The position numbers were made by a program, and so were the translations under genes. This document shows positions 43,843-50,532 of a stretch of 64,000 nt of DNA, piece by piece (within the stretch, counting starts at the first letter, position 1; each line of letters begins with the position of its first letter). The stretch lies in assembly GCF_056746865.1 (NCBI RefSeq), contig NZ_CM163382.1. One strand, 5' to 3'. The notes under the pieces were generated by a model. That model saw only the letters and a program-made list of their open reading frames with translations. It searched no databases and was not told the DNA's origin.

Positions 43843-44733
43843 CTAAACCGGGCGAACGGGGATAAAAATTTCGCAAACAATGTTATTGCTATCAATTTCG
43901 ACGAAGTTTTCATTGTAATAAAATCGCTCAATATCACTGCCGTTCACTCTGGCTAACCCCCTGGCAGGTAATTCCATCAGATAGAGGTTTCGCGCCCATT
44001 CAGGGTAGTGCTCCCACTCACCTTCATAGCGGAAAGAGGCATACAGTCCTCGGTTAATTGTCCACTCTTTCGACATCTCTGAATCGGTTTGTTTGCATAC
44101 CGTACCGGCAAAAGTTTCAACTGTGAGCAAATCGACCGATTTTGTTGACGGTTCGAATGTGGAGACGAAATAGATATCCGTCTTAAAATTCTTCATACAT
44201 CTGGCTAAATGATGACGTCGCAGTTTGACTTCTTCATCCGGTGATTTATTCGATACTTCAATATCATATTTAAATGAATTGCCAAAAATAGGTGTCTCAG
44301 GAAAGTTGACTAATCTACACTCCGTCTTTTGCTGTTGACGTATTAAAAAAGAAGGGAAGATATTTGCGAGATCCCAATAATCACGGTGGCGGTATTCACG
44401 GGGAGAGCAGCCGAATAACTTTTTAAATTCGCGGCTGAATGACTGCTGTGAGTCAAAATGTAAAGAGAGTGCAATATCAAGCATAGATTTCGCGGTGAGT
44501 CGGACAAGAATGGCGGCACGACAAAGCCTTCGTTTGCGAATGTATTCTCCCAAAGGCACATGCATGAAATTTCGGAACAGAAGCTGGATGTTGCGTCTGC
44601 TGTAGCCAGATTTCTGTGCGATATCTTCGATTGAAATAGGGTGCTCAAGATTGCACTCAATCCACTCCAGGAGCTGCTGTAGAATCTTCTGCCTGATCAT
44701 CACATTCTCCGTTAATTCTTTGTCATATCGCAC
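43843..44733 (-). CDS. ykgA: AraC-family regulator with GyrI-like effector domain (YkgA-like)
   Basis: 296 aa; N-terminal AraC HTH (IEDIAQKSGYSRRNIQLLFRNFMHVPLGEYIRKRRL); C-terminal GyrI-like region. Confidence 0.75.
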   Translation of the reverse strand: MRYDKELTENVMIRQKILQQLLEWIECNLEHPISIEDIAQKSGYSRRNIQLLFRNFMHVPLGEYIRKRRLCRAAILVRLTAKSMLDIALSLHFDSQQSFSREFKKLFGCSPREYRHRDYWDLANIFPSFLIRQQQKTECRLVNFPETPIFGNSFKYDIEVSNKSPDEEVKLRRHHLARCMKNFKTDIYFVSTFEPSTKSVDLLTVETFAGTVCKQTDSEMSKEWTINRGLYASFRYEGEWEHYPEWARNLYLMELPARGLARVNGSDIERFYYNENFVEIDSNNIVCEIFIPVRPV

Positions 44734-45521
44734 ATTTTCGTTATGTCCTGGGCCTTAAGTGTATCAAAAACAGCAAGTCCCAAGGCAAAAGCACTGATAG
44801 CGTCTGCTTCATTGCCCCAAAAATAGAGAGGTTTCAGTCCTACATTATTAATGAATTTTTTGCATAAGTGATATCAAAATCCACATACTAATTTGAGGTT
44901 ACGTTTTAACGTAGACTCATTGTTCATACCTAATGGAGGGACTGACAGTGGAATTTTCCGTATTAAGTAACAATCTGAAAATGCCGATGATGGGATTTGG
45001 TGTTTTTCAGGTTACCGATAAAGACGTGTGCAAACAGTCAGTGTTGAATGCTATCCGCACGGGTTATCGACTCATCGACACTGCAGCGGTATACGGTAAT
45101 GAAGATGCCGTCGGTGAAGCCGTTCGTGAAGCTATATCTGAAGGTTTATGTACCCGAGATGAGTTATTTATAACGTCTAAATTGTGGGTGCAGGATATGT
45201 TGAATCAGGATACGGCAAAAGCAGGTATTGAAGCATCATTAAAAAAATCGGGACTAGAATACTTCGACCTCTATTTATTGCACCAGGCTATGCGCGATTA
45301 TTTCAGTGCGTGGCGTGCACTCGAAGATGCCTATGAAGAGGGCAAATTAAAAGCAATTGGGGTTTCCAATTTCTATCCTCATGTTCTGGCGAACTTTTGT
45401 GAAACGGTAAGAGTTAAACCGATGGTCAACCAGGTCGAGTTGCATCCCTATTTTGCCCAACCAGAGGCGCTGGCAACCATGAAGTATTATAACGTGCAGC
45501 CTGAAGCATGGGCTCCGTTAG

Positions 45522-46716
45522 GGAAGGTGCGAACAAGTCCCTGATATGAGATCATGTTTGTCATCTGGAGCCATGGAACAGGGTTCATCATGAGTCATCA
45601 ACTTACCTTCGCCGACAGTGAATTCAGCAGTAAGCGCCGTCAGACCAGAAAAGAGATTTTCTTGTCCCGCATGGAGCAGATTCTGCCATGGCAAAACATG
45701 GTGGAAGTCATCGAGCCGTTTTACCCCAAGGCTGGTAATGGCCGGCGACCTTATCCGCTGGAAACCATGCTACGCATTCACTGCATGCAGCATTGGTACA
45801 ACCTGAGCGATGGCGCGATGGAAGATGCTCTGTACGAAATCGCCTCCATGCGTCTGTTTGCCCGGTTATCCCTGGATAGCGCCTTGCCTGACCGCACCAC
45901 CATCATGAATTTCCGCCACCTGCTGGAGCAGCATCAACTGGCCCGCCAATTGTTCAAGACCATCAATCGCTGGCTGGCCGAAGCAGGCGTCATGATGACT
46001 CAAGGCACCTTGGTCGATGCCACCATCATTGAGGCACCCAGCTCGACCAAGAACAAAGAGCAGCAACGCGATCCGGAGATGCATCAGACCAAGAAAGGCA
46101 ATCAATGGCACTTTGGCATGAAGGCCCACATTGGTGTCGATGCCAAGAGTGGCCTGACCCACAGCCTAGTCACCACCGCGGCCAACGAGCATGACCTCAA
46201 TCAGCTGGGTAATCTGCTGCATGGAGAGGAGCAATTTGTCTCAGCCGATGCCGGCTACCAAGGGGCGCCACAGCGCGAGGAGCTGGCCGAGGTGGATGTG
46301 GACTGGCTGATCGCCGAGCGCCCCGGCAAGGTAAGAACCTTGAAACAGCATCCACGCAAGAACAAAACGGCCATCAACATCGAATACATGAAAGCCAGCA
46401 TCCGGGCCAAGGTGGAGCACCCATTTCGCATCATCAAGCGACAGTTCGGCTTCGTGAAAGCCAGATACAAGGGGTTGCTGAAAAACGATAACCAACTGGC
46501 GATGTTATTCACGCTGGCCAACCTGTTTCGGGCGGACCAAATGATACGTCAGTGGGAGAGATCTCACTAAAAACTGGGGATAACGCCTTAAATGGCGAAG
46601 AAACGGTCTAAATAGGCTGATTCAAGGCATTTACGGGAGAAAAAATCGGCTCAAACATGAAGAAATGAAATGACTGAGTCAGCCGAGAAGAATTTCCCCG
46701 CTTATTCGCACCTTCC
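45522..46716 (-). mobile_element. IS5 (1195 bp)
   Basis: terminal repeats GGAAGGTGCGAA at both ends; TTAG direct repeats at 45518-45521 and 46717-46720; exact IS5 length. Confidence 0.95.
45554..46570 (+). CDS. insH: IS5 transposase InsH
   Basis: 338 aa recognisable IS5 transposase ([35 protein letters not shown]...). Confidence 0.95.
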
Positions 46717-49451: not shown

Positions 49452-49677
49452 GATGATTTCCTGTCGAAACGCGTTCATTTGACATCATGACTATAGACGC
49501 AAAAGAGCAAATAACATTTCTTCACAACGCTTGATATTTTGTCTTATCGTCTGGTATTTTCTTTTTCTTAATCAGAATCACAAAACAAAAATCATGATTA
49601 ACTATTTGATGGTATTAGATTAATTATTGACTAAGATAGTTGGTGTTTGTAATCAAAAAACTACTCAGGAGTCTGAT

Positions 49678-50532
49678 ATGGATGCTCTTAGCCGTTTGTT
49701 GATGCTTAACGCTCCACAAGGAACGATCGATAAGAATTGCGTGTTAGGAAGTGACTGGCAACTTCCACATGGTGCCGGGGAATTGTCGGTTATTCGTTGG
49801 CATGCGTTAACGCAAGGAGCGGCGAAGCTGGAAATGCCGACGGGAGAGATTTTTACATTACGCCCGGGAAATGTGGTCCTGCTACCACAAAATTCAGCTC
49901 ATCGCCTGAGCCATGTCGATAATGAATCGACCTGTATTGTCTGTGGCACTCTTCGGCTGCAACATTCGGCGCGTTATTTTTTAACGTCTTTGCCGGAAAC
50001 GCTGTTTGTAGCACCAGTGAACCATAGCGTGGAATATAACTGGCTGAGGGAGGCGATCCCGTTTTTACAACAGGAATCCAGATCGGCAATGCCGGGAGTG
50101 GATGCTCTGTGTAGCCAGATCTGCGCTACATTCTTTACCCTCGCGGTGCGTGAGTGGATTGCACAGGTTAATACAGAGAAAAACATTCTCAGTTTGCTTC
50201 TGCATCCACGTCTTGGTGCGGTAATACAGCAAATGCTGGAAATGCCAGGACACGCCTGGACCGTCGAATCGCTGGCCAGCATCGCCCACATGTCCCGGGC
50301 AAGTTTTGCCCAGCTTTTCCGTGATGTTTCCGGAACCACGCCGCTAGCTGTATTAACAAAGTTGCGTCTACAAATAGCGGCCCAGATGTTTTCCCGGGAA
50401 ATGCTCCCTGTTGTGGTGATCGCTGAGTCAGTAGGCTATGCCAGTGAATCATCTTTTCACAAGGCGTTTGTCCGCGAGTTTGGTTGTACTCCGGGAGAAT
50501 ATCGGGAAAGGGTCAGACAGCTTGCACCCTGA
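49678..50532 (+). CDS. rclR: AraC-family redox-sensing regulator RclR
   Basis: 284 aa from MDALSRLL...; C-terminal AraC HTH; divergent from rclABC. Confidence 0.85.
   Translation: MDALSRLLMLNAPQGTIDKNCVLGSDWQLPHGAGELSVIRWHALTQGAAKLEMPTGEIFTLRPGNVVLLPQNSAHRLSHVDNESTCIVCGTLRLQHSARYFLTSLPETLFVAPVNHSVEYNWLREAIPFLQQESRSAMPGVDALCSQICATFFTLAVREWIAQVNTEKNILSLLLHPRLGAVIQQMLEMPGHAWTVESLASIAHMSRASFAQLFRDVSGTTPLAVLTKLRLQIAAQMFSREMLPVVVIAESVGYASESSFHKAFVREFGCTPGEYRERVRQLAP

Follow-up and report, generated by a model that had tools for sequence, protein, structure and literature searches.

Genes at an E. coli rcl locus as probably independent neighbours in a variable region of the chromosome

Whether the genes at positions 43843–50532 of the 64,000-nucleotide stretch of DNA analysed here (the window) act together in stress defence, or only lie side by side, is the question that this locus raises. 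The segment carries the regulator gene ykgA, an aldo-keto reductase (AKR) gene split by the insertion sequence (IS) IS5, and the reactive-chlorine resistance genes rclC, rclB, rclA and rclR. A preliminary description, made from the letters alone, had joined these genes and an accessory redox cluster upstream into a single stress-defence neighbourhood. Profile searches bore out all the gene identities that it gave (AraC/GyrI-type regulator, IS5-disrupted AKR, rclCBA/rclR) and their positions, and the upstream cluster is both real and accessory. The single neighbourhood was not borne out, as its parts have separate histories, differ in prevalence and are not linked across genera. We consider it very probable that the segment consists of independent units lying next to one another in a variable chromosomal region downstream of tRNA-Thr, and that these units would not be functionally coupled. 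The window is E. coli chromosome: compared with strain 118UI (NZ_CP032515.1, a urine isolate), it has no mismatches over its first 33717 bases and four over positions 27843–64000, three of these within IS5.

The frequencies of the units were established in 5426 complete E. coli genomes, with at least 80% of each probe covered. The rcl cassette is present in 5062 of them (93%) and the 5.5-kb ykgA-AKR-rcl block in 4990 (92%). Full-length AKR is found in 2937 (54%), the complete accessory redox cluster (32.4–39.3 kb) in 1785 (33%), and a cluster of LysR, hydrolase and MFS genes (11.6–15.1 kb) in only 912 (17%). Such wide differences in prevalence, together with the independent IS insertions described below, indicate that the units vary independently.

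Linkage was also assessed beyond E. coli. A scan for RclA in species-representative genomes yielded 16 Enterobacterales loci from outside Escherichia (11 Citrobacter, S. enterica arizonae and diarizonae, two Enterobacter sp. and two Proteus) and returned no Escherichia locus. At all 16 loci rclR lies divergently beside rclA, with rclB present at nine and rclC at eight, and at none of them was a ykgA orthologue, the AKR gene, fdeC or ykgE found near rclR-rclA in the fetched flanks (up to 10 kb). A sister Escherichia lineage, whose DNA is ~90% identical and whose YkgA protein is filed under Escherichia whittamii or 'MULTISPECIES Escherichia', carries LysR-AKR-AKR-fdeC-ykgA-AKR; ykgEFG comes immediately next, and the site lacks rcl genes. 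Sensitive alignment equates its AKR-ykgE spacer with window positions 50623–50801, so that the rcl cassette represents, relative to this lineage, a clean indel of ~3.6 kb (about 47011–50620) that holds exactly rclCBA and rclR and lies between the AKR stop codon and the upstream region of ykgE.

These results bear directly on the proposal that the 18 kb from 32.5 to 50.5 kb are a co-selected stress-defence and detoxification neighbourhood, in which ykgA, rclR, LysR regulators and the reductases act together against oxidants and electrophiles. Conserved linkage across genomes had been named as a check on this proposal. Linkage exists within E. coli, by descent, in the 4990 genomes that keep the block, but it does not extend to any of the 16 rcl loci of other genera, and the sister lineage has no rcl genes at the site; the proposal therefore fails on its own terms as regards linkage. 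Several oxidoreductases and four regulators do lie within the 18 kb, and ykgA was up-regulated together with soxS and soxR in one transcriptome of adherent-invasive E. coli (AIEC) (PMC9220930). However, the redox genes do not form an unbroken stretch, being interrupted by the 4.25-kb adhesin gene fdeC (39469–43722, + strand), and the prevalence of the units is very unequal. The excerpted values of a published K-12 RNA-seq experiment with hypothiocyanous acid (HOSCN) give log2 changes of 5.0 for rclA, 3.5 for rclB, 4.4 for rclC and 0.74 for rclR, and of 0.50 for the neighbour ykgE, which thus counts as not induced in those values; they include no row for ykgA. Moreover, the rcl defence was characterised in K-12 (PMC7527725, PMC12096828), a strain that keeps only a 3' remnant of the AKR gene. 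We therefore judge a co-selected neighbourhood to be very unlikely.

The AKR gene (44948–47016, + strand) provides a second line of evidence for independent units. The protein reconstructed from its two parts matches PF00248 (148.5 bits, cut-off 24) and carries the tetrad D44, Y49, K78 and H112. Its nearest structural relatives are Thermotoga 1VP5 (E-value 3e-85) and DkgA 1MZR (E-value 4e-58), and it would act as a DkgA-like NAD(P)H carbonyl reductase. Assignment as DkgA or DkgB was rejected, since both equivalog cut-offs were missed (235.5 versus 425 bits and 163.8 versus 327 bits, respectively), and the protein is a paralogue instead. In Klebsiella, the same gene is the final member of a contiguous cluster in which a LysR gene is followed by hydrolase, MFS and AKR genes, with AKR 78 bp past the MFS gene. 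Positions 470–3825 of the Klebsiella locus match window positions 11651–15048 (74.5%, colinear), and positions 3998–4870 match 44945–47016 minus IS5 (74–79%). Between Klebsiella and the window, the LysR, hydrolase, MFS and AKR proteins are 86, 86, 75 and about 80% identical. In the window, AKR lies 29.9 kb from these partners, which are the LysR gene at 11642–12526 (− strand), the alpha/beta hydrolase gene at 12791–13849 (+ strand) and the MFS transporter gene at 13991–15118 (+ strand); pao, yagU, ykgJ, ecp, ykgLOMR, the accessory cluster and fdeC-ykgA stand in between. Homology of the E. coli MFS gene stops ~100 bp short of the end of its Klebsiella counterpart, which places a breakpoint within its 3' end, and Klebsiella homology restarts at 44945, only 3 nucleotides ahead of the AKR start codon.

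These breakpoints suggest that AKR would be the stranded last gene of the LysR-hydrolase-MFS-AKR cluster. Separated from its partners, it would have lost its operon promoter in E. coli, which fits the decay of the gene across the species. The gene is partial in 2113 of the 5426 genomes (about 39%), where typically its last 20% persists as a 3' remnant, as in K-12 EMG2; in others it is hit by an IS, and it is being lost. Because AKR is a decaying orphan of another operon, and only a remnant in K-12, where rcl was characterised, we do not count it as part of the Rcl defence. Its protein sequence is nevertheless 80–86% identical between E. coli and Klebsiella, Kluyvera, Enterobacter, Salmonella salamae, Vibrio, Marinomonas and Marinobacterium, a level far above the norm for such distances that suggests either tight constraint on the protein or its horizontal transfer. 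The AKR gene of Vibrio natriegens occurs singly, next to atp genes.

The accessory redox cluster (32497–38903) comprises an OYE-type flavin oxidoreductase, a hydrolase, two LysR regulators and two AKRs. Between this cluster and the IS5-split AKR, the identity of AKR versus AKR3 is 45%, and the Klebsiella LysR, hydrolase and AKR proteins are 43, 33 and 47% identical to members of the cluster. It resembles a group of distant paralogues of the LysR-hydrolase-AKR genes, and this relationship partly explains the accumulation of AKR genes in the window. Separately, an AKR gene (product 27–35% identical to the AKRs of the window) lies directly upstream of a homologue of RclA/MerA-type HOSCN reductases in several Staphylococcus spp., an adjacency that is independent of the E. 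coli case.

On the other side of AKR, ykgA (43843–44700, − strand) encodes a 285-amino-acid paralogue of Rob, SoxS and MarA with an N-terminal double HTH and a C-terminal GyrI-like domain (Pfam HTH_18, HTH_AraC and GyrI-like); its open frame reaches a GTG at 44733. Orthologues with 68% identity (one Salmonella enterica genome) and 65% identity (Kosakonia sacchari) also lie tail-to-tail with an fdeC orthologue, and neither AKR nor rcl genes are alongside at these loci. The nucleotide homology of the fdeC-ykgA pair spans window positions 39237–44709, from upstream of fdeC to 9 nucleotides past the ykgA start codon. A further 235 bp (44710–44944) belong neither to this block nor to AKR. Because the spacer is foreign to both units, the divergent layout of ykgA and AKR is best read as a junction rather than as a regulator facing its target. 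The conserved partner of ykgA is fdeC, with which it forms a two-gene block, and its position beside AKR would be an accident of the junction. Among more distant YkgA homologues (at most 47% identity; Klebsiella sp., Salmonella Brandenburg and Enterobacter), no AKR, rcl or adhesin gene was found nearby, and one homologue with 65% identity in an IS-rich contig has an unrelated context with none of these genes.

The same evidence can be held against the view that ykgA and AKR are an evolved divergent pair, in which YkgA, on binding a small electrophile with its GyrI-like domain, would switch on the reductase gene, with IS5 now disabling the output. Salmonella and Kosakonia have ykgA without AKR, Klebsiella and Vibrio have AKR without ykgA, and the homology breakpoints at 44709 and 44945 assign the spacer between the genes to neither unit. 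In addition, the roughly 39% of E. coli genomes with an AKR remnant keep ykgA. Such a pair would account for the presence of a ligand-binding domain in YkgA and for the divergent arrangement around a 247-bp intergenic region (44701–44947), which is shared by E. coli and the sister Escherichia lineage, but on balance we regard it as unlikely.

Several points weigh against the conclusion that these units are merely juxtaposed. The 5.5-kb block is retained in 92% of E. coli genomes, and selection may act on linkage within the species. The number of oxidoreductases in the 18 kb (RclA, an OYE-type reductase and three AKRs) exceeds what a random draw would supply; two of the clusters, however, are operon types related by paralogy. 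The direction of each rearrangement would depend on a single outgroup: rcl may have been gained by E. coli or lost by the sister lineage, and the 30-kb separation of AKR from its partners could reflect insertion in Escherichia or rearrangement in Klebsiella.

The IS5 copy within AKR (45522–46716, + strand) is complete at 1195 bp, with its transposase gene at 45590–46570. It separates codons 1–191 (44948–45521), which include the catalytic tetrad, from the remainder of codon 192 through the stop codon (46721–47016). Its 16-bp terminal inverted repeats, GGAAGGTGCGAACAAG and GGAAGGTGCGAATAAG, agree at 15 of 16 positions. On either side of the element lies TTAG (45518–45521 and 46717–46720), a duplicated 4-bp target of the YTAR type. 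The transposase scores 365.5 bits against NF033581 (cut-off 140) and matches Pfam DDE_Tnp_1. Once IS5 and one TTAG are excised in silico, the sequence agrees at every one of 5491 positions with the locus of strain 2017C-4173W12, which is uninterrupted, and from this we conclude that the transposition is a recent, clean event. The restored AKR is 289 amino acids long and identical to WP_001309281.1 of that strain. In its interrupted form, the gene encodes a read-through product of 198 amino acids that retains the tetrad and lacks the C-terminal 98 residues, about a third of the protein; because of this loss, the AKR of this strain would be inactive.

IS5 can activate adjacent genes, as at bgl, glpFK and flhDC, and other strains repeatedly carry elements of the IS5 family here. 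We therefore considered whether the insertion might be adaptive by altering expression of rclC or ykgA rather than merely destroying AKR. However, it lies within coding sequence and is upstream of no promoter: the ykgA start is 820 bp away, and rclC, which is convergent, has its 3' end 460 bp away. A 120-bp probe spanning the left IS5-AKR junction matched only two of the 5426 genomes, 118UI and HR12-1. IS insertions at other sites destroy rclA, rclC or ykgA, as happens when elements strike dispensable genes at random. Activation of neighbouring genes was rejected on position and rarity, and an adaptive role for the insertion is extremely improbable.

The other IS insertions are varied. ISKpn26 splits rclC in O104:H4 strain 2009EL-2071, and seven O104:H4 records among the top matches carry this element at the locus. 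It also splits rclA in F1053, and match annotations suggest the same in several further isolates. ISKpn26 truncates ykgA in XDL, AKR carries IS1 in SCU-313, and in TUM1881 the whole rcl cassette is deleted beside an IS1. The preliminary description had placed two IS insertions nearby, of which IS5 is one. The other, ISEc31 (IS3 family; about 19.9–21.2 kb, 19941–21154), is ~11 kb outside the 18-kb stretch and 23 kb from the segment studied here, so that 'nearby' was generous. ISEc31 lies inside paoA and splits this gene for an aldehyde oxidoreductase Fe-S subunit. Rfam places isrC (19973–20095) inside ISEc31, and IS009 (22390–22590) near yagU.

The variable character of the region is also visible beside tRNA-Thr (10648–10723). 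A partial second copy of the ykgL/ykgR region occurs there (11162–11430 versus 31038–31190 and 31874–31990, 79–91% identical), along with a LysR fragment at 10851–11081. Both are probably scars of rearrangement at a variable site.

We next turn to the rcl genes, which constitute a self-contained oxidant-defence cassette that is already characterised. Each product exceeds its NCBIfam equivalog cut-off: RclA with NF040477 (872.2 bits, cut-off 740), RclB with NF040474 (151.8 bits, cut-off 100), RclC with NF040476 (341 bits, cut-off 275) and RclR with NF040475 (554.6 bits, cut-off 400). rclR (49678–50532, + strand) encodes an AraC-family activator of 284 amino acids (Cupin_6 and HTH_18) with Cys21, Cys89, His42 and His75. 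Parker and colleagues are said to have described Cys21 and Cys89 in 2013 as the redox-sensing residues of RclR. Across a divergent control region (49452–49677) lies rclA (48126–49451, − strand), which encodes a flavin disulfide reductase of 441 amino acids (Pfam pyridine-nucleotide disulfide oxidoreductase). Its active site C43-INIG-C48 has the CxxxxC form described for RclA in PMC7527725. On the same strand follow rclB (47781–48017), for a small periplasmic YdgH/BhsA-like protein of 78 amino acids, and rclC (47176–47769), for a DUF417 inner-membrane protein of 197 amino acids. The divergence of rclR from rclA, with rclB and rclC following on one strand, recurs at the Citrobacter and Salmonella loci. 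According to published work, RclR is an activator specific for reactive chlorine and HOSCN (PMC7527725, PMC9335216, PMC12096828); oxidised RclR activates rclABC, RclA reduces HOSCN and Cu(II) (PMC9335216, PMC7527725), and RclB and RclC are envelope proteins of unsettled role. The 16 loci from outside Escherichia agree with the published picture in which RclA alone is widespread, whereas rclABCR is limited to some enteric genera (PMC7527725).

The spacer between rclA and rclB (48018–48125) contains a perfect palindrome with 11-bp arms, AGACGCCAGAA-N6-TTCTGGCGTCT (48088–48115; folding z-score −4.6). In E. coli it sits directly past the rclA stop codon and has no T-run; in Citrobacter and S. enterica arizonae/diarizonae, a canonical intrinsic terminator follows rclA. 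The motif ACAnnTATnCTGGCGT, ~75 nucleotides ahead of rclB, is invariant across an alignment of E. coli with six further loci (seven species in all), and a weaker look-alike occurs ~90–100 nucleotides ahead of rclA. A candidate rclB promoter motif in this spacer reads TTCTGGCGT. These features suggest that rclBC has a promoter of its own, and the roughly 10-fold lower level of rclBC RNA (PMC12096828) would fit such an arrangement. Consensus scans for promoters and terminators over 43.7–51.1 kb were uninformative (19 matches versus 15.3 expected and 7 versus 6.6 expected).

Matches to the rcl probe were also found on E. coli plasmids (154 in all). Plasmid pCUWW11A (NZ_CP182155.1, 107058–108383) carries rclA alone, 98.8% identical and without rclR, rclB or rclC, between IS1 copies, and this looks like a mobilised single gene.

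With the segment read as a set of independent units, its adjacency of redox-sounding genes would reflect a variable region that gathers accessory units rather than a shared function. The only lead that we consider worth following lies outside 43843–50532, in the fdeC-ykgA block, where an invariant putative promoter and a structured leader precede fdeC (39236–39468, + strand). A marbox-like site, CTTGCACAAAAAGCTAAATT (39236–39255), stands at the start of this block. Of the 19 positions of the consensus AYnGCACnnWnnRYYAAAY it fits 18, and a search of both strands of 128 kb gave only one other match of this kind. The site is oriented forward toward fdeC and lies 18 bp from a TATAAT (39274–39279) that has no usable −35 element. 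With the fdeC start site predicted at about 39286, it would be centred at about −40.5. Class II marbox promoters have a forward marbox that overlaps the −35 element and is centred between −36 and −55 (PMC12052159), a range into which the fdeC site would fall. The screen in that study went no further than 200 bp from the start codon, and the fdeC site, 214–233 bp from its start codon, is not in its tables.

The site, written in its invariant form as TTGCACAAAAAGCTAAAT, belongs to a well-conserved region. Apart from one variable base in the first, the elements TTGCACAAAA-GCTAAATT and AATAAAAATATAATCCCGC do not vary among E. coli, the sister Escherichia lineage, Salmonella and Kosakonia. The coding sequences of these four lineages are only 67–77% identical, and the non-coding segment 39236–39468 is more conserved than the fdeC coding sequence. 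A scan of metagenomes for a non-Escherichia variant of the site gave two unrelated chance matches only, and more distant inverse autotransporters (56–64% identity) have no promoter or leader of the fdeC type.

The fdeC leader of ~183 nucleotides is likewise conserved, and is predicted to form three hairpins with compensatory changes in 4 of 45 predicted pairs. An invariant UUUUCUGA (a U-run) is predicted to pair with the equally invariant UCAGGAAA, which holds the Shine-Dalgarno sequence. This pairing appears in the consensus fold and in three of four single-sequence minimum-energy structures (37 °C), and its pairs, being invariant, offer no covariation. Over the range 30 to 45 °C, the Shine-Dalgarno AGG of each of the four orthologues is predicted to be paired, with a probability of being unpaired that does not exceed 0.13, and no sharp melting of the leader is predicted across that series. 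Rfam gave nothing credible for the leader, its matches in the whole window being tRNA-Thr, isrC and IS009. FdeC itself is reported (PMC11143625, citing Easton 2014) to be detectable only at 39 °C or above in enterohaemorrhagic E. coli (EHEC) and to be induced at 42 °C in avian pathogenic E. coli (APEC).

The DNA-binding properties of YkgA are relevant to this site. The protein aligns end to end with Rob structures 7VWY and 1D5Y (E-value 1e-38), and with SoxS, RamA and MarA across the DNA-binding domain. Its identification as Rob, an activator of multidrug resistance (MDR), was rejected on the basis of the Rob equivalog cut-offs, which it misses (195.2 versus 380 bits and 173 versus 426 bits). 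It shares the full-length architecture of Rob and keeps recognition helix 6 (SQQSFSREFK versus SQQTFTRAFK). In contrast, recognition helix 3 differs from that of Rob, MarA and SoxS at base-contacting positions (SRRNIQLLF versus SKWHLQRMF). Where MarA has W42, H43 and R46, which we take from the MarA structure to be the positions of helix 3 that read the marbox, YkgA has R, N and L. Because these positions have changed, the DNA specificity of YkgA may differ from the canonical marbox.

The ykgA-AKR spacer holds TGTATCAAAAACAGC (44760–44774), which is one base off a marbox predicted at the core promoter of K-12 ykgA (PMC12052159, supplementary file 3), and the 19-nucleotide marbox consensus finds no match there at two or fewer mismatches. 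Matches across the window do not exceed chance (23 versus 17.8 expected).

YkgA has been regarded as a homologue of SoxS, MarA and Rob without known function or targets (PMC2064960). We offer the tentative hypothesis that ykgA is not a stress-defence gene and might instead be a dedicated regulator of fdeC, whereby YkgA or MarA/SoxS/Rob would activate fdeC at the class II site and the leader would add post-transcriptional control by temperature. The divergence of helix 3 weighs against a link between YkgA and fdeC, though helix 6 is kept, as do the convergent arrangement of fdeC and ykgA and the restriction of the evidence to four lineages. We consider the hypothesis doubtful as a whole, but not so improbable as the alternatives discussed above. 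Through it, an orphan member of the MarA/SoxS/Rob group gains a candidate target in fdeC, the gene for an inverse-autotransporter adhesin that is a vaccine candidate.

Compared with known systems, the genes at 43843–50532 are known E. coli genes plus one rare, ordinary IS5 allele. The insertion conforms to IS5 (IS5 family, IS5 group) in size, terminal repeats, YTAR duplication and DDE transposase, without any difference. AKR has the same fold family, tetrad and length (about 280–290 amino acids) as the DkgA/YvgN-type aldo-keto reductases of the 2,5-diketo-D-gluconate reductase family, and differs from them in forming a separate, unusually well conserved lineage. The rcl genes correspond to E. 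coli K-12 rclR-rclABC (ykgD-ykgCIB), with all four genes in unchanged order and orientation and with DNA 98–100% identical across E. coli. Nothing of substance distinguishes the two rcl loci; the flanking AKR gene is full-length but split by IS5 here, and is reduced to a 3' remnant in K-12.

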